NCBI GenBank assembly: GCA_902517795.1
Contig: CABYDR010000001.1
Location: 2,512-66,511 of the forward strand
DNA length: 64,000 bases
Origin: an uncultured Woeseiaceae bacterium
GTDB lineage: Bacteria; Pseudomonadota; Gammaproteobacteria; Steroidobacterales; Woeseiaceae
Reading direction: 5' to 3'
A program made the translations under genes and the position numbers. Shown piece by piece: positions 22,119 through 36,732 of the stretch; positions within the stretch are counted from its first letter, which is position 1; each line of letters begins with the position of its first letter. The notes under the pieces were generated by a model. That model had not been told where the DNA came from and did not search any database. It saw nothing but the letters and a program-made list of their open reading frames with translations.

Positions 22119-23306
22119 ATGATTAAACTAATAATACTCACAATAGTAATATTTTTTGTGCAAATTAATACAACTCTTTCTCAAGAAGTTAGATGTGATA
22201 GAGAAATGAATATCACTTATTACAAAAATCCCAAAATATTACTAAATGAATTTTCATCATTTCCTGAACGTAAGTCACAAGTGGCTATAAATGCTTCAAA
22301 TAAAGCTGAAAAAATAGTAGATGAATACTGGAATCATATTGGACCCGAAAAACACCTACATGAACTAAATACTGTTTTGACTAAATACAGCATTATTACT
22401 GAAAATTTTGAAAAAAATGGAGAGTTTGAGTTTTTATTCAATAATAATGGCAAATTACAAGCCACTAATTTCGCAAACTGTAAAACAGAAATCCTTTATT
22501 GGGAATATCAATCACAACCATATAATGGAACATTCAGTATATACATAGGCTCCAAGGATACTAATGAATACCTCATAAGATTTGGGATTCAAGGCTCACA
22601 TTCACAAAATCATTACAGGCTCAACTATTATAAAAGAGGAAGTCAAAATTGCTACAACTCGATGAATCCAATCTGTCATAAACATCTAACTGAATTAAGA
22701 ATATTGGGATACGCAGATCTAGAATCAAATTTAAAATTTGATGAATTAAAAAATATTGTTAAAACCGAATTGGAAACAGCTAAAAAAATAACCGAAGAAG
22801 CATATGCTAAGCAATTAGCTCAAGAAAAAGCTGATAGAGATCGGGCTCAGAATGCAAAAGAAGCTAGAGTAAAGGCGGAAAGAGAGAGAATTGAAGCAGA
22901 AAAGGCGAAAAGATTGAGACTTATAAAAGAAAAAGAAGAATTTGATGGCTCTCCTTATGGTCAACTTTATAATTCATATTCATCATATTTGATGATTAGT
23001 GATTTATATGATGCTAGAAAGGAATTTGCAACTCCATATATTACACAAACAAAAATGTCTGAAGTAAAGAAGAAGATGAGAGAAATAGAGAACAAAATGA
23101 TATCTGAAAAAAAACTTGATACAGATATGATTTGGGCTAATGCTGAAAAAAGTTACCAAACTGAATTCTCAACTTCAATGGGTCTCATAAAATCTTCCGG
23201 CATCTATTCAAATGAAGCAAATTCAATGGCAAAAATACAATTAATAACGTTCGATGCAATTCATAAAGATGTTGTTGGATACAAATCAATTGAAAAGGAT
23301 TTTTAA
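22119..23306 (+). CDS. hypothetical secreted protein with central E/R/K-rich helix (module protein A)
   Basis: Signal peptide MIKLIILTIVIFFVQINTTLSQ. Charged segment AQEKADRDRAQNAKEARVKAERERIEAEKAKRLRLIKEKEE. No catalytic motif recognised. Confidence 0.6.
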   Translation: MIKLIILTIVIFFVQINTTLSQEVRCDREMNITYYKNPKILLNEFSSFPERKSQVAINASNKAEKIVDEYWNHIGPEKHLHELNTVLTKYSIITENFEKNGEFEFLFNNNGKLQATNFANCKTEILYWEYQSQPYNGTFSIYIGSKDTNEYLIRFGIQGSHSQNHYRLNYYKRGSQNCYNSMNPICHKHLTELRILGYADLESNLKFDELKNIVKTELETAKKITEEAYAKQLAQEKADRDRAQNAKEARVKAERERIEAEKAKRLRLIKEKEEFDGSPYGQLYNSYSSYLMISDLYDARKEFATPYITQTKMSEVKKKMREIENKMISEKKLDTDMIWANAEKSYQTEFSTSMGLIKSSGIYSNEANSMAKIQLITFDAIHKDVVGYKSIEKDF

Positions 23307-23483: not shown

Positions 23484-24104
23484 TCACTTAATAAGCTCTT
23501 TTGCAATGAAAGAAACTCTTAATACACCACTTTCTCTTTGAAATTGCTCGCCACCTATAGAGGCAATATAAGTCTTCCAAGCTGCATTTATACCATCAAA
23601 GAAAATAACATTTGACCTCCCTGCTTGGTTAATCTCCATCATTTCTCCAGCAATATTGACCGAAAGCAATTTTTTTATATAAAGCTCTACTGATTCCTTA
23701 CCACCAAGAAATATAACTCTATTAGAAGTAAAAATTAATTCGCCAAAATCAATACTCGTTAGAGCCTGTTTTTGTTTTCTTGAAAACTCGCCTATACGAT
23801 AACTAAGACCATCCATGACTCTGAGAGAAATACCTTGATATATTCCCTTTTGTTTAATATTTTTAAATTCTAATAATTGGACATCATCTAATTTCAAAAT
23901 AATTCTTTCTTGATCTTGGAGCCTTATTGACGAGTCTTGAATTGCAGCTTCCAAGACTAGATTTTCCAGCGCTTTTGCTTCCTCCTTGGAAATTCTTGTG
24001 ACGGGAATCTCTTTATTGATTTTAAATTCTGGTTTTTTGATAAGCTTAATTACAAAGAGAATTAATACCATAAACATCAATATTACAAAGATATCTAAAA
24101 TCAT
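23484..24104 (-). CDS. hypothetical membrane-anchored protein (module protein B)
   Basis: Strong SD (aaggagg, 5 nt before the ATG) and an N-terminal TM. The C-terminal beta-rich part (GELIFTSNRVIFLGG..MEINQAGRSNVIFF) is faintly reminiscent of bacterial PH-like domains. Confidence 0.6.
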   Translation of the reverse strand: MILDIFVILMFMVLILFVIKLIKKPEFKINKEIPVTRISKEEAKALENLVLEAAIQDSSIRLQDQERIILKLDDVQLLEFKNIKQKGIYQGISLRVMDGLSYRIGEFSRKQKQALTSIDFGELIFTSNRVIFLGGKESVELYIKKLLSVNIAGEMMEINQAGRSNVIFFDGINAAWKTYIASIGGEQFQRESGVLRVSFIAKELIK

Positions 24105-24146: not shown

Positions 24147-24515
24147 CTAGAGATTATCAAATAAATCGTCATTCTTATCCACCTTGGTAGACTCGTCGAT
24201 TAGCTTCGATGATGTGTCTTTAGTTGCTACTTTTTTCTCTGTAACTTCCTCTTTCTGAATATCAGGGCTCTCCTGTGTTTCAGTGTTATCTTTTTTCTTT
24301 ACAGGTGCTTGAGAGGATTTTGATATTTTTCTATAAATTAGCCGAATGATAACGAAAGGAACGTAAATCATTAAGAACACCATTATTATGGCTCCAATTA
24401 TTGCCAATGGTATTTCTAGAGGAGTCCCTTTTAAAAATCGGCCCGCGATGAAAGCTATTGCAAATAAAGCACCGAAAGATACATATAATATTTTCTTAGT
24501 AGACCAATTTTTCAT
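24147..24515 (-). CDS. hypothetical 2-TM protein with disordered Lys/Glu/Thr tail ending NDDLFDNL (module protein C)
   Basis: Its ATG overlaps the stop of the upstream gene (TAATG). Two hydrophobic helices are followed by an about 55-aa low-complexity tail. Confidence 0.6.
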   Translation of the reverse strand: MKNWSTKKILYVSFGALFAIAFIAGRFLKGTPLEIPLAIIGAIIMVFLMIYVPFVIIRLIYRKISKSSQAPVKKKDNTETQESPDIQKEEVTEKKVATKDTSSKLIDESTKVDKNDDLFDNL

Positions 24516-24955
24516 TATATATCATCGAATAAATTATCAACTTTTTTTTCATCTGCTGCTAAAGCTTTCTCTGTTTGAGTTTTTTTCGTTGCTGCTTCTG
24601 ATTTTTTAGTATTTTGTTTATTTACTTTTTTAGTTGGTGTTGGGGTTTCATCTACCATTATCATCATTAAAGCAATCACAAACATGACCCATCCAAGAAT
24701 GGTTAAATCTACGTTTGGCAGATCACCATGCACAATTTCCCCAAGAGACCAAATATTTAAAGCTGAAACGCCCCATCCGTCAAGAAGATAGGCGCTGATT
24801 AATCGCCATGCACCCCATACCAAAGCTAATAAAAATACTAAACCTAATAGAGCTTCTCTACCGTGTTTTCTTCCATACAAACTAGAAACCAATACTAATA
24901 ATGCAAGACTAAAAGGCCAATTTTCTTGAGCCCACTGTAAGGTTTCAGTTAGCAT
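24515..24955 (-). CDS. hypothetical 3-TM protein with Lys-rich tail ending VDNLFDDI (module protein D)
   Basis: The ORF track starts at 24967. I prefer the ATG at 24953-24955 because GGAGG (24961-24965) lies 5 nt upstream. Overlaps the end of the upstream gene by 11 nt. Confidence 0.6.
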   Translation of the reverse strand: MLTETLQWAQENWPFSLALLVLVSSLYGRKHGREALLGLVFLLALVWGAWRLISAYLLDGWGVSALNIWSLGEIVHGDLPNVDLTILGWVMFVIALMMIMVDETPTPTKKVNKQNTKKSEAATKKTQTEKALAADEKKVDNLFDDI

Positions 24956-26324
24956 ATTTACCTCCAAATTCGTTGAATAATTTATTGAGATTTTTTGAAT
25001 CTTTTGAGAGTTTTAAGCCTTCATTTTTAACTCTTTCCATTGCTTTTAACACTTTTTCGTCTTCATAATAACTTAACGCTTTCTCAAGATTGGCTAACCT
25101 CATTTCTAGGTTTTTATAGAGTGCCCCATAAAGCTTTTTATATCTACCAAGTGTCTTTTCATAATAACCATTTCCTTCTAAAGTTTGATTAACTTTTGGG
25201 TTATCATGTATATCAGCGTATGAATTCTCTACTCTATTCTTCAGTACTTTAGCATTACTCTCAGTTGATAGGATTATCGTAATTAAGCCTGGAGTTTTTT
25301 TCCAAATTACACTGCCAAGCGCTTGAGCCTCTTTAGCAAATTTCCCTTTACCAAACCAAGATGATTTGTGATTCTTATCTAAAGTTTCAAGATCTGAATT
25401 CATTTTATCAATCTGAGTTTTCATCGTTTTGCCAGTCTTTACTGCTTTGTCTATGGCTTTATCAAATAAAGCCATGACTTCTTTACACCCATCATCAAGT
25501 TCTTTTTTTTCTTTTGCTCTTTGCTTAGCTTCTTCTTCTTTCTTTTTTATATCAGCAGCAATCTCTGGGACAAGGGGAGCAACATTAGCCTCAATATATT
25601 TCGAGATTACCTCAGCATTTACTGGATCTTCAAAACCAGAAAAATCATCAAAACTAAGATTTTTGGGAAGCGAATCTTTTATAGACACTTCACACTTGCT
25701 TTTAAAAATTTTTATCATTGAATGATTAGCGATCTTAGAAGATGTTGCTACTTTCTTTAATTCACTCTCGTACAACAGATCAAAAGTGTCAAGAATGTGA
25801 ACCCCGACAGCTAATTTAAAAAGATTCTCTTCGAGAAAAGGAACGGTGACTTTTTTAAACTGTGAGCTTGTTGTAAGACCATTCTCATTGTTGTAAACAC
25901 GGGCTACTACTCTTAGATCGACCCCAAATAACTTCAAGGGAACGTCATGTTCTAAGAATCTTCCTTTTAAGATAAGAAGTTCTTTTTCATATTTTTCTTG
26001 TTCTTTTTTTTCTTGGGCAAGAAGCTTCTGACGTTCTTTTTCATCTGCAATTGATTTTCTTTCAGCTGCTTTTACTGCTGCTGCTGATGCTTTTTCACTT
26101 TCTCTTACCCTTTTGGCGTGTTCTCTAGCAGATCGTTTCCTAGATCGCTCAGCTTCTCTTTCTCGCCTCTTTCGAGCTGTTTCAGCCGCTCTTGCTTCTT
26201 TCCTTCGAGCAGTTTCAGCTGCTCTCTTTCGTTTTCGCGCCTGCACAGCACTTTTTTTTACCGCATTACTCGCAGCGGCTCCCCAATCCACTTTGCCTTT
26301 TTTCCAAACTTTTTTATATGCCAT
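24945..26324 (-). CDS. hypothetical soluble protein with extremely basic Arg/Lys/Ala/Glu N-terminal region (module protein E)
   Basis: 459 aa with no signal peptide or TM. Residues about 25-115 are R/K/E/A-rich with an internal AAETAR repeat. The remainder is predicted helical. No catalytic motif recognised. Confidence 0.6.
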   Translation of the reverse strand: MAYKKVWKKGKVDWGAAASNAVKKSAVQARKRKRAAETARRKEARAAETARKRREREAERSRKRSAREHAKRVRESEKASAAAVKAAERKSIADEKERQKLLAQEKKEQEKYEKELLILKGRFLEHDVPLKLFGVDLRVVARVYNNENGLTTSSQFKKVTVPFLEENLFKLAVGVHILDTFDLLYESELKKVATSSKIANHSMIKIFKSKCEVSIKDSLPKNLSFDDFSGFEDPVNAEVISKYIEANVAPLVPEIAADIKKKEEEAKQRAKEKKELDDGCKEVMALFDKAIDKAVKTGKTMKTQIDKMNSDLETLDKNHKSSWFGKGKFAKEAQALGSVIWKKTPGLITIILSTESNAKVLKNRVENSYADIHDNPKVNQTLEGNGYYEKTLGRYKKLYGALYKNLEMRLANLEKALSYYEDEKVLKAMERVKNEGLKLSKDSKNLNKLFNEFGGKYAN

Positions 26325-26403
26325 AATTAACTGTTAGTATTGATTGAATATATTTTAATAATATAATTATTTTATTATCATAATTTATCATAATAATAAA
26401 ATC

Positions 26404-27663
26404 ATGAATAAAACGTTATTGCAATTAATCAGACCCCACCTGTTGTTATTGACTCTATGTTTAAGCGCCTATGTATCTGCTGAATCATATGACACAAATG
26501 AATATATTGGTTTAGATAATGCAATCTGCAAAAACGCAAGCAAACATCTAACTCTAGAAACCTCAGGCTTCTTTGAATACATTGGTGCTGGTGAATCAAA
26601 AATATTTGAATGCGGGAAGCATAGTGACGAACCATGCAGAAAAGATTCTGAGTTAATTTGTAGAAATACACATAAAAAATACATTCTAGATAGATCTGAA
26701 GCTCTTCTAATTGGCGCTAATAAATATACTGATAACACAAAAAAAATAAAAAACCGAAAAAAATTAGAGCGAGCAATCAAAAAGCAAACCAAATTAAATG
26801 AAAATTGGAAAAATTCAAACGATATTCTTTCACTGATCGGCTCTTTAGAGAGGGAAGTTATGCTTACTGCCTCTTTATTGCCCTCCGAGACTTATTCTCA
26901 AATTAACAATGAGCTTAAAGTTCAACATGATCAAATTCGACAGGAAATCCTTGAGCAACAGAGAATCGCAAGAGAAGCAAGCTTGAAAAAACAAAGGCAA
27001 AAAGCAGCTAAACAAGCAATAGAAACTCGTCAACAACGGGAGATTGATGAGCAGATACAAATCATGATGTATCTTTTAGGGATACTTGCGATTGTAGTTT
27101 TAGCTGGAACACTTACAAACAAATGGATATTTTTTGACAGTGAACAAGATTTTTTTATGACCCTAGGTTTATTAGCTTCTATTACGACCTGTTTCTTTAT
27201 GATTGAAGAATATGATTACAAACAAAACGTTACTGTTTCAGGAGATCTATTTTATTGGTCTATAACCAGTGTTTCTGCCCTGCTTTCAATATGGTTAATA
27301 TTTAAAACATACATGACTTCAATAAAAGGAAATGGCTTCTTTGTAGGAACTTTTATTTATTTATTTAAAGTGGCATTTAGCATTATTCTGGTAATGTTCA
27401 TTGTTGCTAAAATTGCTGACATTACAAGCAATAAAGATGGAAGGACAAGGGCAAATCGTGCTCCAGCTTTGGCAATTCTTGCTTTAATTGCGATTTTTTG
27501 GAAACCAATAAAATGGCTTCTTATAAATGGTGATAGAGTGAGAGAAAAAAAAGCAGCTAATAGAATGAAAACTCAAGTTAAAACCGCACCGCCTGTGAGT
27601 GAAACTAAAGCTTCTAATCATAAAAACCTAGACGCCAGCGATGATATGTTTAGCGATATTTAA
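26404..27663 (+). CDS. hypothetical polytopic membrane protein with Cys-containing N-terminal exodomain, charged helix, about 5 TM and a tail ending SDDMFSDI (module protein F)
   Basis: Signal peptide, five Cys in the mature exodomain, charged segment EQQRIAREASLKKQRQKAAKQAIETRQQRE, then hydrophobic helices. Divergent from protein E across a 79-bp AT-rich spacer. Confidence 0.6.
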   Translation: MNKTLLQLIRPHLLLLTLCLSAYVSAESYDTNEYIGLDNAICKNASKHLTLETSGFFEYIGAGESKIFECGKHSDEPCRKDSELICRNTHKKYILDRSEALLIGANKYTDNTKKIKNRKKLERAIKKQTKLNENWKNSNDILSLIGSLEREVMLTASLLPSETYSQINNELKVQHDQIRQEILEQQRIAREASLKKQRQKAAKQAIETRQQREIDEQIQIMMYLLGILAIVVLAGTLTNKWIFFDSEQDFFMTLGLLASITTCFFMIEEYDYKQNVTVSGDLFYWSITSVSALLSIWLIFKTYMTSIKGNGFFVGTFIYLFKVAFSIILVMFIVAKIADITSNKDGRTRANRAPALAILALIAIFWKPIKWLLINGDRVREKKAANRMKTQVKTAPPVSETKASNHKNLDASDDMFSDI

Positions 27664-27893: not shown

Positions 27894-27980
27894 TGGTGCC
27901 CAGGGCCGGACTCGAACCGGCACGTCCTTTCGGACAACGGATTTTAAGTCCGTAGCGTCTACCAATTCCGCCACCCGGGC
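27894..27980 (-). tRNA. leuZ: tRNA-Leu (anticodon UAA)
   Basis: The reverse complement GCCCGGGTGGCGGAATTGGTAGACGCTACGGACTTAAAATCCGT...GGTTCGAGTCCGGCCCTGGGCACCA has a 7-bp acceptor stem, a long variable arm, a CTTAAAA anticodon loop and an encoded CCA. Confidence 0.9.
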
Positions 27981-27994
27981 CTAGGAAAGTTGAT

Positions 27995-28068
27995 TGGAGG
28001 CTAGGGTCGGAATCGAACCGGCGTCCGCGGCTTTGCAGGCCGCTGCATAACCACTCTGCCACCTAGCC
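27995..28068 (-). tRNA. cysT: tRNA-Cys (anticodon GCA)
   Basis: The reverse complement is GGCTAGGTGGCAGAGTGGTTATGCAGCGGCCTGCAAAGCCGCGGACGCCGGTTCGATTCCGACCCTAGCCTCCA. It folds as a cloverleaf with a CTGCAAA anticodon loop. Confidence 0.9.
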
Positions 28069-31336: not shown

Positions 31337-32140
31337 CTAATGATTTTTTTTCAATGAAGTTTTCATATAGTCTACAAGAATCATATGCGGCACAGTTAGC
31401 GCTGCCAGGCCAATAAAAGTTATCTTTAGCAAATCATCTGAAATCATTTTGTTATCGCTAACATAATAAACAGTAGAAAAAATTAGCATAAATGTCACCA
31501 TGCTATATACCAGAGTTTCTTTTATTGCTTGATGCTTCTCTTTTTTACTTAATATTCTTAGAACTTTATTCATATGCCTAGGGCCATGTATCAAACAAAA
31601 GTAGATTGAGAAAGAGACTAGAGGTGGCAACACATAAATCAAAATTAATAAAATAATTAATTGAACATACCTTTTTACATAGGATTTTCTTCTAATAAAA
31701 TTAACTGTGTATAAAAAGAACACTAAAAACCAAGCGTAAAATAGATAAGTGATTATTGAGATTAGAAAGGTTGCTGTGTCAGCACCTAGCAAAAAAAATA
31801 TATCTGTTGCTTCTTCAGTATGCGACCATGGGATCATAACTGGCACCAAGCCAGCGTGTGAAAAAAAGGATATCCTGTTTATTTTTTCATCATCATCGTA
31901 TTCACTATGCGCGAAGTGAAGACCGGAAATCAACAAAAAAATTATAAGTGAAATCAGGGGCTGATATAACCAAAATACAATAACAAATAGAGAAATGACG
32001 ATGTAGGAAAAATGAAAGACAAAAAAATAATTTGCTGTATTAGGCCATCCCTTCATTCGCGCAATCGTGTTATCTAATGCGCCGTGCGGTATACCGAGAA
32101 GAATAATGCATAACAGTGCTACCCAGTTGTATACCTCCAT
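31337..32140 (-). CDS. blh: Brp/Blh-family beta-carotene 15,15'-dioxygenase (retinal synthesis)
   Basis: Polytopic membrane protein with the N-terminal GIPHGALD motif and conserved His residues. Lies directly after crtY in the proteorhodopsin cluster. Confidence 0.8.
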   Translation of the reverse strand: MEVYNWVALLCIILLGIPHGALDNTIARMKGWPNTANYFFVFHFSYIVISLFVIVFWLYQPLISLIIFLLISGLHFAHSEYDDDEKINRISFFSHAGLVPVMIPWSHTEEATDIFFLLGADTATFLISIITYLFYAWFLVFFLYTVNFIRRKSYVKRYVQLIILLILIYVLPPLVSFSIYFCLIHGPRHMNKVLRILSKKEKHQAIKETLVYSMVTFMLIFSTVYYVSDNKMISDDLLKITFIGLAALTVPHMILVDYMKTSLKKNH

Positions 32141-32145
32141 ATAAT

Positions 32146-33255
32146 TTATCCTCTTTTGATGCTTTTAAGAATTTGCTCAATAAATGGCTTTTTTGGCATT
32201 TGAGCTATCACTTTTGACCAAATATTGAAGCTTGTTGTGTTTGTCATAAACCTTGCAAATTCGTCTGCAGATAATGATTTTGACGTATTAAGGAACAAAT
32301 CAATGGCAATCTGAGGGTTATTTATTAATACTTTGTTGAATATCTCATCCATGAAAGTAACAAATTTATTCATTGTTACTGGAACATCATAGCACTCATT
32401 TCTTATATTATTTGCCAATTCGCCAACTTGAGATTGAATATTATGAAAAGCATATCCTGAGGACATCCTGACAGCACCTCCCCTTGCTCCAATGCAATGG
32501 ATACCCTTATTTTTATATTCTATTTTACCTTGAGATATAACACCCTTTTCAGATGAAAGTTTTTTTAGATAATTTAGGTTTTTATTTTTCATCCATAATT
32601 TTATCTGATCCTCATACCATTCTACCTGGTTGAGCTCTTTTGAAATTACAGTTGACTCAACGAATAACTTTCTTTCTGAAAAAGGGAGTGCATATATAAA
32701 GTGCAACCCATTATATTGATCAACATCAAAATCCATTAAAATCACTGAATCAATGTGATGAGCTTCAGTTAATTCAAACTCTATACCGTAAAAATGTTGT
32801 CTTAATAAACCAGCATTTAGTTTTGGTGGTCTACTATCATAAACATGGCATGCAGAGACAATATTATTTTTACAGATTATTTCTTTTCGATTATTTTTTT
32901 TTGAGATCTCAACTACTGCGTCTCTTATAATAAGAATATTAGAATTATTTAACTCATTTTCAATTTGTGATAAATACATGGATGCATTTATACATACGTA
33001 TTTATAACTTGAGCTGGAGTGAATTATTTTTTGTGTTTTATTAGAAACTGTCCAATCTTCCCAACTACCCTTTATTGAATTTTTAAAAATAGAAAGATTG
33101 TCTTTATGCATCCAAGTGCACCAATTTGCAACTTTATTCTCTGGAAGCTCTGGCTCAATAACAACTATCTTCTTTTTTGTTTGATCTCGAAATAAATTTC
33201 TCGCCAATGATAGTCCAGCATTACCAGCACCTATAATTGCAATATCAAAGTTCAT
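32146..33255 (-). CDS. crtY: lycopene beta-cyclase
   Basis: Rossmann start MNFDIAIIGAGNAGLSLA. The ORF track extends to 33324, but that would overlap crtB by 80 nt, so the ATG at 33253-33255 is preferred. Confidence 0.8.
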   Translation of the reverse strand: MNFDIAIIGAGNAGLSLARNLFRDQTKKKIVVIEPELPENKVANWCTWMHKDNLSIFKNSIKGSWEDWTVSNKTQKIIHSSSSYKYVCINASMYLSQIENELNNSNILIIRDAVVEISKKNNRKEIICKNNIVSACHVYDSRPPKLNAGLLRQHFYGIEFELTEAHHIDSVILMDFDVDQYNGLHFIYALPFSERKLFVESTVISKELNQVEWYEDQIKLWMKNKNLNYLKKLSSEKGVISQGKIEYKNKGIHCIGARGGAVRMSSGYAFHNIQSQVGELANNIRNECYDVPVTMNKFVTFMDEIFNKVLINNPQIAIDLFLNTSKSLSADEFARFMTNTTSFNIWSKVIAQMPKKPFIEQILKSIKRG

Positions 33256-34162
33256 TGGCACCTGATAAACCCTGAAAATATTTATGGAGCTTTTTTTCAT
33301 GAAGGGGAACTTTTTTTGGAACAATGCAATTCAGTGAGATAATGCTTAAAAGCATTTTCTTTTTATTACTAACAATTGTTCTTCCTTTCCACCATTGAGT
33401 GCCATTTTGGACCAGTTTAACTCCAATTTGCCGATATAATTTTAGTGCGATAGCTATAGCAATTCTCGATCTCATGGGAATGTAATAAATTCCTTTTGAA
33501 GCACTTTCATAATATTTTTCTGCAAGAGAAAAAAGTTTTGCAGTCGCATTTGAAATAGCTTCTTTGTCTGATAAATTTTTCTGAGCTATCCTCTCAGGTT
33601 CATTATCTAACCAAGTTGATGGAATATATCTTCGTCCAATTTGAGCATCTTCAAGGACATCTCTAGCGATATTAGTCAATTGCATTGCAACACCCAGGTC
33701 TACAGCAAAATATACTGACTGCCTTTCAGAACAATTTAGGATGCTTTGAACCATAACACCAACAGTTCCTGCAACAGCATGGCAATACCTTAGTAGTTCT
33801 TTTTCATCAGCAATTCTTACTGATCCTTGATCACTCAGCATTCCCTCCATTAATTCTTCCGCCGCATGGACTGGTATAGAGCATTCTGATACAAGATCAA
33901 GGAATTCTTTTACAACTTCTGGCTGATTCTTCTGATCTTTATTTACTAAGTGATCTTTAATATTGTTCAGCAATAATTCTCTGTTTGGATTATTGCTGTC
34001 TGCGAGATTATCAACGTATCTACAAAACTTATAAAGTCTTGCCACTTTTTGAGAAAGTATTTTACCTAAAAACTGACTAGCCCAATAAAAAGAGCTCCCA
34101 TATTTTTTTAATACTTGTTTAGGTTCATTTTGAATCATTTTTTTCACCTGATCCGACTTCAA
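33245..34162 (-). CDS. crtB: phytoene synthase
   Basis: Squalene/phytoene synthase motifs YCHAVAGTVG and QLTNIARDVLEDAQIGRRYIP. Confidence 0.85.
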   Translation of the reverse strand: MKSDQVKKMIQNEPKQVLKKYGSSFYWASQFLGKILSQKVARLYKFCRYVDNLADSNNPNRELLLNNIKDHLVNKDQKNQPEVVKEFLDLVSECSIPVHAAEELMEGMLSDQGSVRIADEKELLRYCHAVAGTVGVMVQSILNCSERQSVYFAVDLGVAMQLTNIARDVLEDAQIGRRYIPSTWLDNEPERIAQKNLSDKEAISNATAKLFSLAEKYYESASKGIYYIPMRSRIAIAIALKLYRQIGVKLVQNGTQWWKGRTIVSNKKKMLLSIISLNCIVPKKVPLHEKKLHKYFQGLSGANEL

Positions 34163-35642
34163 CTCCTGTCATAAGCTCTTGCATTACTTTAGCAGAACTT
34201 ATGACACCAGGTAATCCTGCACCAGGATGTGTCCCTGCACCAACAAAATAGAGATTTTTGTATCTCTTATGTTGATTGTGAAATCTAAACCATGCAGATT
34301 GGGTAAGCTTTGGCTCAACTGAAAATCCAGCACCATTAATAGACCTATAGTCATCTTTAAATTCTTGTGGAGTCATCCAAAATACTCCCTCTATACACTC
34401 ATTTAAATTCGGCATGATTGTTTGATTTAATGCTTCAATTATCTTATCTGCTAGGACTTTTCCCTCTATCTTCCAGTTAACATCCCCTTGTAAATTTGGA
34501 ACAGGACACAATACGTAGAATGAGTCATGCCCTTCAGGAGCGAATGAGCTATCTGTCGCAGATGGACGATGCAAGTATAAGGAGAAATCATCGCCTAATT
34601 TTTTTTTCTCAAAAATATCATGCAATAGTGATTGGTATTTTTTCCCCATCCATATCGTATGGTGGGCGACATTATTAAATTTAACTTTGGTGCCAAAATA
34701 AAGCACGTAAAGTCCCATTGAATAGGTTTTTTTTAGGTTAAATGGATTTGTGACAGATTTTTCACTAAGTAATTCTCGGTAACAAACTTCTGGATCACCG
34801 GCAAATACAATATTATCAGCGATGAGATTTGTATTATCTTCAGTATCTATTGAAATAACTTTATTGCCTTGTTTATTAATTCTTTTAACATCGCAATTTT
34901 TAATAATTTTAATTTCATGCCTTAACATTAGTTTTTCTAGCTCACTGACTAATTTACCGGTCCCCCCCATACAAAAGAACACACCCCACTTTCTTTCTAA
35001 ATAATGAATTAATGCATAGATAGATGTTGTAGTGAATGGGTTTCCTCCAATTAAAAGAGGATGAATTGAGAATGCTTTTCTGATCAAAGGATGTTTAAGA
35101 TGTTTGCTGACCATTTGCCAAACTGTTCTATAACATTTTAATCTCAGTAAGGCCGGTATCTGAGATACCATTGAATATAGGGATACAAATGGCCTATGGA
35201 CAAGTTTTTTGAAGCCAATATCGTAGATTAATTTTGACTCAACTAAAAGGTCCTCATACCTTCTAGTATCTTTAGGATCAAATTTTTCAATTTCCGACTT
35301 TGTATCTTCTATAGAAGCTCTATAGTTAAAATACTCGTCGGATTCACTAAAGTAAAAACGGTAGTAAGGATCGAGGTGGACAAATTCTAGATGATCATCT
35401 AGATGCTCATCAAATAGCTCGAATAATTCGCGAAATAAAAAAGGTGCCGTTATGACTGTTGGTCCAGCATCATGTTTATACTCACCTTTTTTGAAGGTTC
35501 TTGCCCTGCCGCCTAATTGATCCAGTCTCTCAATTAATATCACCTCATGACCGAGCGATCTTAGCCTGAGTGCCGATGCGATACCAGCAAACCCTGAACC
35601 AATAACAATTGATTTGATTGAATAAGTTTTTGATATTTCCAA
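34125..35642 (-). CDS. crtI: phytoene desaturase
   Basis: N-terminal FAD motif VIGSGFAGIASALRL..LIERLDQLGGRA, C-terminal FVGAGTHPGAGLPGV, about 500 aa. Confidence 0.85.
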   Translation of the reverse strand: MEISKTYSIKSIVIGSGFAGIASALRLRSLGHEVILIERLDQLGGRARTFKKGEYKHDAGPTVITAPFLFRELFELFDEHLDDHLEFVHLDPYYRFYFSESDEYFNYRASIEDTKSEIEKFDPKDTRRYEDLLVESKLIYDIGFKKLVHRPFVSLYSMVSQIPALLRLKCYRTVWQMVSKHLKHPLIRKAFSIHPLLIGGNPFTTTSIYALIHYLERKWGVFFCMGGTGKLVSELEKLMLRHEIKIIKNCDVKRINKQGNKVISIDTEDNTNLIADNIVFAGDPEVCYRELLSEKSVTNPFNLKKTYSMGLYVLYFGTKVKFNNVAHHTIWMGKKYQSLLHDIFEKKKLGDDFSLYLHRPSATDSSFAPEGHDSFYVLCPVPNLQGDVNWKIEGKVLADKIIEALNQTIMPNLNECIEGVFWMTPQEFKDDYRSINGAGFSVEPKLTQSAWFRFHNQHKRYKNLYFVGAGTHPGAGLPGVISSAKVMQELMTGVEVGSGEKNDSK

Positions 35643-35683
35643 GCTGTTTACCCAAAGCTTGATATTGAGGTTTGATGGATTGT

Positions 35684-35709
35684 GAAGGTCGGGAATAAGC
35701 CCGACCTTT
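35684..35709 (-). terminator. stem-loop between proteorhodopsin and crtI (possible partial terminator or RNA-stability element)
   Basis: A 9-10 bp perfect stem (aaggtcggg / cccgacctt) with a 6-nt loop, starting 26 nt after the PR stop codon. No U-tract follows on the transcript, so termination efficiency is uncertain. Confidence 0.4.
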
Positions 35710-35734
35710 CACGAATCCGATTAACTCAGATCAA

Positions 35735-36415
35735 TTATCCTGAGTCTTTAACTGCTGCTGCCCATATAACTAAACCAAATGCAGTCTTGTTTACCAAGTC
35801 TGCTAAGTTGTAAATTATATTAAGAGCATCGGCATTTCCTTCACCACCGACTAAGTAACCTATTGGGTATATAGCCCATCCAACTAGAACGATCATCCGG
35901 AGAGCGTTAAAAGCCATCTGACCAGCTGCATTTCCGCTAGCCTCGCTGGCTTTCGCTGCATCTCCAGCGAAAATCAAGTAGATTACAGCTGCCCATCCAA
36001 TCATACCAATAGTGAATGCAGGCATGCTTGCCATATATCCAGTTTCTCCCATGTAGCCACCTATTAACATGACTAGAGAAGCAATTAGTAGCTTCCAGAA
36101 TAGTGAAGATCTAACTGTAGTCACAGCAGCAAGAATGAGATAAAACTCAACTATCTGCAATGGAACAGTAATCAACCAATCAATATATCTGAGAACTGTT
36201 GGTGACTCACCAGTTGCTACCCATCCGGCCCTCATGTAGAGATAGTGCCAAAAAGCAACACCTGTTACCAAAGCTGCAACTGTGAGCGATGTTCTCCACT
36301 TACCATTTACATCTCCTCTTTCAGCAAGAAAGAAGACAGTAGATGCAAGCATTATCGCAGTTGCCAGCCAAAAGGAAATACCAACGGCATCGTTGGTTGC
36401 GAGCATAGATTCCAT
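35735..36415 (-). CDS. proteorhodopsin, blue-tuned (Gln at the position-105 equivalent)
   Basis: RYIDWLITVPLQIVEFY contains the Asp97 acceptor, Gln105 and Glu108 donor equivalents. FWHY contains the His75 equivalent and NLADLVNKTAFG the Schiff-base Lys. I prefer the ATG at 36413-36415 (MESML...) because AAGGGGA lies 6 nt upstream. The ORF track starts at 36436. Confidence 0.9.
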   Translation of the reverse strand: MESMLATNDAVGISFWLATAIMLASTVFFLAERGDVNGKWRTSLTVAALVTGVAFWHYLYMRAGWVATGESPTVLRYIDWLITVPLQIVEFYLILAAVTTVRSSLFWKLLIASLVMLIGGYMGETGYMASMPAFTIGMIGWAAVIYLIFAGDAAKASEASGNAAGQMAFNALRMIVLVGWAIYPIGYLVGGEGNADALNIIYNLADLVNKTAFGLVIWAAAVKDSG

Positions 36416-36732
36416 AAGAAATCCCCTTATTTTCAAATTGTTAGCACTCCAGTTTTTAATTTGAAATACTAACTTTTAAAAACATGACTTCATTTTGAAT
36501 TAATACTTTAGAATATCAAAATAAAGTCACCCAAAAGCCTGTGCAAGGCTCATTTGTGCCATAAGTTAAAATTGAGACTTTAACTTGTATATCATGAATA
36601 GCACAATTTTCTAGATGAGAATGATTCTCATACCTCACCTAACTAAAATTTAACAATACTTAACAATAGAATTCAAGTCATATTTAACTTAAATATTGAC
36701 ATATTCTGACATGCAAAAATGGGCTAATTGAA

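Follow-up and report, generated by a model that had tools for sequence, protein, structure and literature searches.

We studied a 64-kb stretch of DNA (64,000 nucleotides, here called the window) from an uncultured Woeseiaceae bacterium, contig CABYDR010000001.1, in which five tightly packed genes encode the proteins B to F. We found that C, D and F, three proteins with different membrane parts, end in the same heptapeptide, D-x-[LM]-F-x-[DN]-[IL]-COOH, and that this motif is strictly terminal, conserved in relatives, specific to the cluster and co-distributed with protein E. We are confident that the heptapeptide is a functional C-terminal signal specific to this module. With more reserve, we lean towards the reading that it is a locus-specific, tethered docking peptide read by the co-encoded protein E.

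Three cluster proteins end in one heptapeptide

An earlier note on this DNA had given the C-terminal residues of C, D and F together with their codons, and translation of window positions 24147-24200 (-), 24515-24568 (-) and 27610-27663 (+) reproduced both exactly (Table 1). A six-frame scan of the 64 kb with the pattern D.[LM]F.[DN][IL] returned three occurrences, each of them the last seven residues of C, D or F. The pattern was not found internally in the 21,367 residues of the window's open reading frames (ORFs) of at least 100 amino acids (aa), and a looser pattern gave no additional match in the window. Given the amino-acid frequencies of the window, a single C-terminus would carry the motif with a probability of 6e-6, which amounts to about 4e-4 expected among 60 proteins; the objection that such endings might be just as frequent at random C-termini, which the earlier note had raised against itself, is not borne out in the window, with three observed against about 4e-4 expected. 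Each tail has a charge of -4 when the free carboxylate is counted, and places three hydrophobic side chains at positions -4, -3 and 0. Moreover, the tails use different codons and stop codons, indicating that their similarity is maintained at the protein level.

The proteins that carry the tails share an arrangement of anchor, low-complexity linker and terminal motif. C has two predicted transmembrane (TM) helices followed by a Lys/Thr/Glu-rich linker of about 55 residues and the tail DDLFDNL, while D has three predicted TM helices, a Lys/Thr/Glu-rich linker of 37 residues and the tail DNLFDDI. F is built from a signal peptide, a periplasmic N-domain containing cysteines (C42, C70, C78 and C86 are invariant), a charged coiled region, four to five TM helices, a linker and the tail DDMFSDI; its linker comprises 37 residues, or 74 if the fifth hydrophobic segment is not a TM helix. 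The linkers of all three proteins are net basic, at +2 to +5. The positive-inside rule predicts a cytoplasmic location for the C-termini of C, D and the TM2-domain proteins described below, and that of F would be cytoplasmic under the five-TM model, which also fits the stand-alone proteins that consist of the F TM domain. Pairwise BLAST of the TM bodies gave E values of at least 0.05, in agreement with the claim that the TM parts are not alike, with the caveat of a weak match between C and D. At full length, C and D matched each other (E 6e-5) over the last TM helix, the linker and the tail, and F was unrelated. C and D may thus have a common ancestral C-terminal half.

The heptapeptide is conserved in relatives and always abuts the stop codon

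We gathered about 40 related loci (labelled L0xx), all of them marine metagenomic, and assigned orthologues by BLAST. All 17 orthologue matches of D end in the motif, at 25-87% overall identity, and so do all 10 of the BLAST-detected orthologue matches of C; in both sets the endings follow [DEG][DNT]LF[DG][DN][IL]. Most F orthologues are tailed as well, and wherever the linker is present they end in DD[LIM]F[DS]DI. L008 and L022 have no C, and in L017 and L061 C forms a fusion with a Zn-ribbon domain. The complete orthologues of C and D and most of those of F thus keep [DE][DN][LIM]F[DSG][DN][IL]-COOH right at the stop; in its more general form we write the heptapeptide as [DE]-[DN]-[LIMF]-F-x-[DN]-[IL]-COOH, in which position -2 varies (D, S, K, N, G). 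Between clades the tail keeps 4-7 of its 7 residues, the linkers are 20-40% identical and 34-91 residues long, and the TM bodies of D and C are only 27-65% identical. The earlier note had proposed to ask, by alignment of homologues, whether conservation is limited to the terminal heptapeptide; the tail is indeed the part that is kept, and the linkers diverge. In every case the motif is followed directly by the stop codon, which implies a role for the free carboxylate. Taken together, these results support the view that selection acts on the heptapeptide as a short linear motif that is strictly C-terminal.

The tails also covary within a genome, since both tails in L072 read [LI]FKN[LI] and both in L073 read DFF[DN]DI. 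Peptide and reader may co-diversify, with LFKN[LI] in one lineage and DFF[DN]DI in another.

Further carriers are confined to the cluster

The earlier note had described the tail on three proteins, all of them membrane proteins. In the relatives its range is wider, and we identified at least six protein types with the tail, one of them soluble. TM2-domain proteins (PF05154) encoded beside B or E end in SDDLLDDI, NDLFDDI, SEDLLDNI, KDFFDDI or EDIFKNI, and a soluble protein of about 170-220 aa ends in ESDDLLDDI, SDDLFDNI or EDDLFKNL. The other carriers are C fused to a Zn-ribbon domain (NDTLFDDI), the N-domain of F fused to the same Zn-ribbon domain (EDLFDDI), a 126-aa membrane protein (DDFFNDI) and a D-like protein next to a distant E (EDLFDDL). 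The TM2 model of Pfam was matched by tailed neighbours in L001, L061, L072, L073/L074 and L076 (37.8 bits against a cutoff of 27.9 in one search), and TM2 tails can carry Leu or Val at the aromatic position (DDLLDDI, DDLVDDI). Pfam and NCBIfam searches returned neither an MCP domain nor a TM2 match for C, D and F of the window, and in single-sequence searches of the PDB neither the soluble tailed protein nor the Zn-ribbon protein gave a match.

The Zn-ribbon domain ('...YRCYECxAETLF...') has no match in Pfam or the PDB. It occurs alone and tail-less in L006, after the TM hairpin of C in L017 and L061, and after the N-domain of F in protein P0019; both types of fusion are tailed. An identical B protein (P0085) was found in L061, L062 and L063 with three different neighbours, namely the C/Zn-ribbon fusion, D and a C-type protein, and many metagenome contigs end inside or beside the cluster. 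These neighbour differences and contig ends suggest strain-level variability of the cassette.

We screened 1,221 ORFs of 50 aa or more, taken from the window and 35 related loci, and those with a tail were all located inside the cluster or immediately next to it. No tails were present in the 10-kb flanks of L001, L060, L061 and L064, with short stretches covered per genome. The search for other proteins with this ending, which the earlier note had proposed, thus found none outside the cluster within the 64-kb window and the related loci. When representative genomes of GTDB were scanned for DNA encoding DDLFDDI followed by a stop, the 29 matches were at about chance level and nearly all of them were non-genes or unrelated proteins; in viral contigs the motif matched only by chance or internally. 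One of the 29, in a Saprospiraceae metagenome-assembled genome (L042), is an unrelated 168-aa protein with about three hydrophobic segments and an acidic linker that ends in YDDLFDDI. Its neighbours are glycosyltransferase, epimerase and O-antigen-ligase-like genes, and the examined part of the locus has no E-like gene. The ending of this protein could be convergence or chance.

The confinement to the cluster bears on a reading in which a housekeeping machine encoded elsewhere reads the tail and E is irrelevant, with the tail acting as a degron for an AAA+/PDZ protease, as a ligand of a hub of the beta-clamp or SSB kind, or as a sorting or secretion signal. Acidic-hydrophobic C-termini that need a free carboxylate are typical ligands of hubs, PDZ domains and TPR domains, the ending [DS]-x-[IL]-COOH fits PDZ classes I/III, and D[LM]F resembles the core of the clamp motif. 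Nevertheless, no tailed protein was found outside the cluster in the regions scanned, the tails vanish with E (see below) though housekeeping hubs would remain, the Gln that defines clamp motifs is absent, position -2 is variable, and B to F contain no PDZ or TPR domain. We therefore regard a housekeeping reader as very unlikely, and a hub such as the beta-clamp is unlikely because the clamp Gln is absent and no tail occurs outside the cluster.

The variety of carriers also bears on whether a common partner is needed at all. The linker-plus-tail cassette could have been copied between neighbouring genes without any shared partner, or, in a variant of this reading, each tail could fold onto its own linker as an autoinhibitory plug. 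The weak similarity of C and D over the last TM helix, linker and tail would fit copying. Moreover, C and D of L001 share 21 identical nucleotides immediately upstream of the tail, which points to occasional copying between the two genes, and positions -7 to -12 ('EKNEKKV') are common to C and D within a genome. The acidic tails and net basic linkers would suit autoinhibition. However, copying explains the spread of the cassette and not the fixation of its last seven residues while the linkers randomise across E lineages that are 23-29% identical. It also does not account for the differing synonymous codons and stop codons, nor for tails on the unrelated F, TM2 and soluble proteins, whose upstream sequences differ, and a purely intramolecular role does not predict the joint loss of the tails with E. 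Copying without a common partner is thus quite unlikely in our judgement.

Tails co-occur with protein E

The earlier note had proposed a common cytoplasmic partner, which could be E, a domain of B or a host hub. Of these we favour E, as the tails are absent from loci that lack E and keep B and F. All 11 locus types that contain E are tailed, with one to five tailed proteins each, and none of the four E-less types (L010/L021, L018/L019, L023/L024 and L025/L027) has an intact tailed protein (Fisher p = 7e-4, a rough value that ignores phylogeny and the linkage of C, D and E). In the E-less types B lies directly beside F. F itself is tail-less in 4/4 of them and tailed in 7/8 of the E-containing types (p = 0.01, likewise rough and ignoring phylogeny). 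In the E-less loci, F stops just after 'INGDKVRAKR', past its last hydrophobic segment, and has neither linker nor tail.

When B was placed in a neighbour-joining tree, the E-less clade L010/L018/L019 branched from within E-containing lineages, indicating that E was lost there. F of this clade retains only the start of the linker (SSLEAKN...) before its stop codon, and L010 carries a 60-aa remnant ORF that still ends in SDNIFDDI. The association extends to distant relatives of E. All four distant-E loci with a complete, readable neighbouring gene have tailed proteins after E, mostly of the TM2 type: L072 (DDLFKNL and EDIFKNI), L073 and L074 (KDFFDDI and DDFFNDI) and L075 (EDLFDDL). In a further one, L071, the contig ends 196 bases past E and the next gene is cut.

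Several points weigh against docking of the tails on E. We infer tail-E binding, membrane recruitment and the cytoplasmic location of the tails from sequence, and the tail of F would be cytoplasmic only if its uncertain fifth TM segment is real. Because C, D and E are adjacent, their co-occurrence is partly physical linkage, and the independent signal rests on F. The test on F alone weakens to p = 0.08 once the count includes the stand-alone F-TM proteins that lie next to distant E and have no tail, and L008/L009 retain E and a tailed D, yet have a tail-less F. Independent losses are few: one is clearly derived, and one or two further E-less lineages are basal. In E of L072, whose tails carry Lys at position -2, we found no convincing compensating change of charge. 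In addition, the PH/GLUE-like domain of B, described below, is an equally plausible kind of peptide-binding fold.

Protein E as the candidate reader

E has no TM helix and no signal peptide. Its net charge is +30, of which +23 falls in the first 124 residues, and is thus complementary to the -4 of each tail. An AlphaFold2 (AF2) model of E is all-alpha (predicted local distance difference test (pLDDT) 80, predicted template-modelling score 0.46), with a basic helix at residues 13-124, a helical domain and a long hairpin. We identified 28 close homologues. A profile of the E core run against 1.84 billion representative proteins returned only 13, six of them distant, and five of these six are 23-29% identical to E of the window. 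E gave no match in Pfam, NCBIfam, PADLOC, PHROGs or PDB sequences, and no Foldseek match below E = 0.1 in the PDB or BFVD, where only generic coiled-coil noise appeared. From its helix pattern, E was considered as a scaffold of the PspA/ESCRT-III or BAR-like type, and this was dropped since neither Pfam nor Foldseek gave a match; the Pfam models PspA_IM30, Snf7 and Band_7, the last for flotillin-type scaffolds, were not matched. The stretches of E that are most conserved across the deep divergence are 'LNGLFLExDxP...NGLTTxSQFKKVTxPYL' and 'WFxKGK'. E also ends in a conserved peptide of its own, 'LSKDSKNxxKLFxxFGG' (Table 1), which has low AF2 confidence, reads 'Y[SA]DSK[NH]I[ML]KL' in distant relatives and can be summarised as 'DSKNIxKL(F..FGG)'; this second terminal peptide might itself dock on another protein, such as B or F.

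In the mechanism that we propose, non-homologous cluster proteins (C, D and F, and in relatives also TM2, soluble and fusion proteins) would display one peptide, held at the end of a disordered cytoplasmic linker. The peptide would dock on E, an elongated, strongly basic, all-helical cytoplasmic protein, so that interchangeable anchors could recruit or cluster E at the inner membrane. E and the tails would form a sub-module that plugs into a conserved core, made of membrane-anchored B with its PH/GLUE-like domain and the TM domain of F.

A conserved core of B and F

B consists of one N-terminal TM helix and a cytoplasmic, beta-rich domain, and the cytoplasmic part is mildly basic (+4). We identified 52 homologues, none of them below 57% identity. 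Every locus encodes B, whether or not it encodes E, and B is the conserved partner of F. The Vps36 GLUE (split-PH) model, PF11605, was matched by 16 of 17 B members, one of them above the cutoff (24.4 against 24.1 bits), and not by B of the window. The AF2 model of B is poor, with a pLDDT of 48. Searches of Pfam, NCBIfam, PADLOC and PHROGs yielded nothing significant for B to F, and sequence-profile searches of the PDB were empty for B, E and F.

These features raise the question of whether the tails dock on the PH/GLUE-like domain of B instead, with E acting downstream and making the interaction useful. PH-like folds such as PTB, EVH1 and the PH domain of TFIIH p62/Tfb1 commonly bind short peptides, acidic-hydrophobic ones included. 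The matches of 16/17 members to the GLUE model, one at gathering score, and the mildly basic cytoplasmic part would agree with such a role, and B accompanies E in both distant loci whose contigs reach beyond the immediate neighbours of E (L072 and L073). However, the match to GLUE is marginal, and the AF2 model of B is too poor to use. Moreover, B is highly conserved in the four E-less types, which have no intact tail and have lost the tail of F, so that B alone does not maintain the tails. We consider docking on B unlikely, and retain E as the favoured reader.

The core can be told apart from the rest of the locus. The TM domain of F also occurs as a stand-alone, tail-less protein of about 180 aa beside distant E relatives, and in L073 a B-F pair is separate from a unit made of F-TM, E and the tailed proteins. 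These separate units and the stand-alone F-TM proteins show that the locus is composed of a conserved B and F core and an E-and-tails sub-module. Between the two units of L073 lie genes for a KAP-family NTPase, a 111-aa beta-flower-like repeat protein, an 82-aa ORF and a PvuRts1I/SRA-like restriction protein (Table 1), an insertion that resembles a defence island.

What the module does is a separate question, and one suggestion is a phage-defence or lysis role, in which C, D and the TM2 proteins would be effectors that act like holins or disrupt membranes and that E gates through the tail. Small proteins with two or three TM helices and a charged C-terminal domain represent the generic holin architecture, and C, D and the TM2 proteins are built in this way. 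The strain-variable content of the cassette, the contigs that often break at the cluster and the restriction-like insertion in L073 would also fit. In contrast, PADLOC gave 0 matches at E <= 0.1, PHROGs gave only matches at E >= 0.01 (an Rz-like spanin at 0.057), and no endolysin, spanin or phage genes lie nearby. The locus is chromosomal and, in several lineages, syntenic between a proteorhodopsin/ion-channel side and an EamA/XseA side. We hold this role to be highly improbable; it addresses what the module ultimately does and could hold alongside docking of the tails on E.

Comparison with known tethered peptides

The earlier note knew of no described system that uses this motif, and none was found in searches of the literature, Pfam, NCBIfam, PADLOC and PHROGs. 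String searches of the literature for the motif and for the function of bacterial TM2 proteins gave nothing relevant, and in our annotation and literature search no source names proteins B to F or their relatives. The logic of anchor, linker and terminal peptide is already known; what is new here is the motif, the candidate reader family and the gene module.

The tether of chemoreceptors, which recruits CheR and CheB through NWETF, is alike in that a membrane protein with a linker of at least about 30 residues displays an acidic-aromatic C-terminal peptide for a soluble cytoplasmic partner, and in that only a subset of family members carries it. The linkers described here, at 34-91 residues, low-complexity and poorly conserved, are of that kind. 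The peptides differ: the endings LFDNL, LFDDI and MFSDI contain no Trp and finish in Ile or Leu instead of Phe, and so depart from N-W-E-[TS]-F. NWETF carriers are methyl-accepting chemotaxis proteins (MCPs), whereas C, D and F have no MCP domain in Pfam or NCBIfam. Unlike CheR and CheB, E as the candidate partner is neither a methyltransferase nor a methylesterase, and the peptide here sits on several non-homologous proteins.

The SSB tip (DDDIPF) and the FtsZ C-terminal peptide also combine a disordered linker with a conserved acidic-hydrophobic terminal peptide; in their case a basic-rimmed pocket reads its free carboxylate and its hydrophobic residues. There, one tail serves many partners, whereas here many tails would contact one partner. 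Moreover, the tails have no Pro-Phe end, no OB or tubulin fold is present, and the carriers are mostly TM proteins. The beta-clamp motif (QL[SD]LF / QLxLxL) requires a Gln, and the tails instead have V, S, N, G or D three residues before L-F. The EEVD-COOH ends of Hsp70/Hsp90 read by TPR domains, and the ligands of PDZ domains, are likewise strictly C-terminal, acidic or hydrophobic and in need of a free carboxylate, but these systems are eukaryotic or periplasmic, and neither a TPR nor a PDZ domain was detected in the locus. For PDZ ligands, the Ile or Leu at P0 fits, while P-2 varies (D, S, G, K, N) and B to F have no PDZ domain.

Cargo-loading peptides of encapsulins and microcompartments are alike in that unrelated, neighbour-encoded proteins share a short terminal peptide on a variable linker and co-occur with the gene of the partner. 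E, in contrast, is not a shell protein; it is all-helical, with no HK97 or BMC fold by Foldseek and Pfam. Those peptides are Gly/Leu-rich, whereas the tails are acidic and their carriers are mostly integral membrane proteins. LiaI-LiaH and PspB/C-PspA resemble the module in that they pair small proteins of two or three TM helices with a co-encoded, soluble all-alpha protein, which is brought to the membrane, but no shared terminal peptide is known in them, and E has no PspA/ESCRT-III match.

The LC3-interacting region and Atg8-interacting motif (LIR/AIM) has the core [WFY]-x-x-[LIV] after acidic residues; F-x-x-[IL] is present in 36 of 42 distinct tails, a sequence pattern that alone is weak evidence. 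The free-living, marine planktonic context, with its proteorhodopsin and retinal operon, implies no host, and what the tails follow is E and nothing related to a host. An effector of the Legionella type, with a host LIR or a Dot/Icm signal, was considered and dropped, as the relatives are free-living marine plankton without a host link.

Locus layout and genomic setting

The coordinates of the cluster and of other features are collected in Table 1. The stop codon of D overlaps the start of C by 1 nucleotide. The window is chromosomal DNA of low G+C content (31-40%) and also encodes the housekeeping proteins AcnA, bifunctional aspartokinase/homoserine dehydrogenase and UvrC; the cluster itself, at 31-35%, lies slightly below most of the remaining window. 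Two tRNA genes stand directly downstream of F, and in other lineages the cluster occupies a different but syntenic chromosomal context without tRNA genes. A proteorhodopsin gene lies upstream of a retinal-synthesis set, and in the relatives L001, L018 and L061 the rhodopsin gene is 0.3-2.5 kb from B. The flotillin-associated rhodopsin cluster is a different gene set from B to F (PMC10308929). Protein A, which adjoins B, is apparently not part of the module, as none of the related loci has a counterpart of it. The relatives of B, E and F all come from marine metagenomes (for example Tara and Fram Strait) and none is annotated; a protein-pattern scan found no relatives of F among the GTDB species representatives, the DNA scan for DDLFDDI with a stop did not recover the family there either, and an exact look-up of F in the assembly index returned nothing. 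G+C content and gene content alone would suggest, as a guess, a SAR86-like gammaproteobacterium.

Table 1. Coordinates of the cluster genes, their tails and other features (window positions unless a related locus is named).
Feature	Positions	Strand	Description
Protein A gene	22119-23306	+	Signal peptide, Lys/Glu-rich coiled region
Gene B	23484-24104	-	206 aa, without tail; ORF
Gene C	24147-24515	-	122 aa; ORF and translation
C tail codons	24150-24170	-	D-D-L-F-D-N-L, then TAG; terminus ...KNDDLFDNL
Gene D	24515-24967	-	150 aa from TTG at 24967; in-frame ATG at 24955
D tail codons	24518-24538	-	D-N-L-F-D-D-I, then TAA; terminus ...KKVDNLFDDI
Gene E	24945-26324	-	459 aa; ORF
E terminal peptide	24948-25040	-	Residues ~430-459
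E-F intergenic region	26325-26403		79 bp, divergent
Promoter-like hexamers	26340-26367	+	10/12 matches; consensus matches only
Promoter-like hexamers	26381-26352	-	9/12 matches; consensus matches only
Gene F	26404-27663	+	419 aa; divergent from E
F tail codons	27640-27660	+	D-D-M-F-S-D-I, then TAA; terminus ...ASDDMFSDI
tRNA-Leu(taa) and tRNA-Cys(gca)	27894-28068	-	
Retinal-synthesis set with proteorhodopsin gene	31337-36436	-	Amine-oxidase-type crtI, crtB (SQS_PSY), lycopene cyclase (crtY), blh (BCD)
Proteorhodopsin gene	35735-36436	-	PF01036, E 1.7e-46
Zn-ribbon protein, L006	863-1720	-	Domain alone, tail-less
C/Zn-ribbon fusion, L017	1447-2631	-	Tailed
Tailed protein, L042	1421-1927	-	Saprospiraceae, 168 aa
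Insertion between units, L073	1274-4883		KAP NTPase to PvuRts1I/SRA-like gene

Implications

Eukaryotic interaction networks rely heavily on short linear motifs carried by disordered tethers, and to our knowledge few such motifs have been defined in bacteria (the SSB tip, the FtsZ tail and NWETF). The tail described here is a motif defined purely from sequence that comes with a candidate reader, natural gain and loss variants, and lineage variants usable as specificity controls. Moreover, a scan for C-terminal peptides shared among neighbouring genes is general and could find other hub systems.

We tentatively put forward a broader picture, a system of many anchors and one hub, in which a novel helical E family would read the C-terminal code DDLFDDI-COOH on a strain-variable cassette of membrane and soluble proteins, plugged into the B and F core. 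For the five unannotated genes of these abundant, uncultured, proteorhodopsin-bearing marine bacteria, a testable interaction offers an entry into the function of the module. If this picture is true, these bacteria would possess a self-contained prokaryotic signalling or recruitment system based on short linear motifs, which possibly controls membrane organisation or envelope defence.

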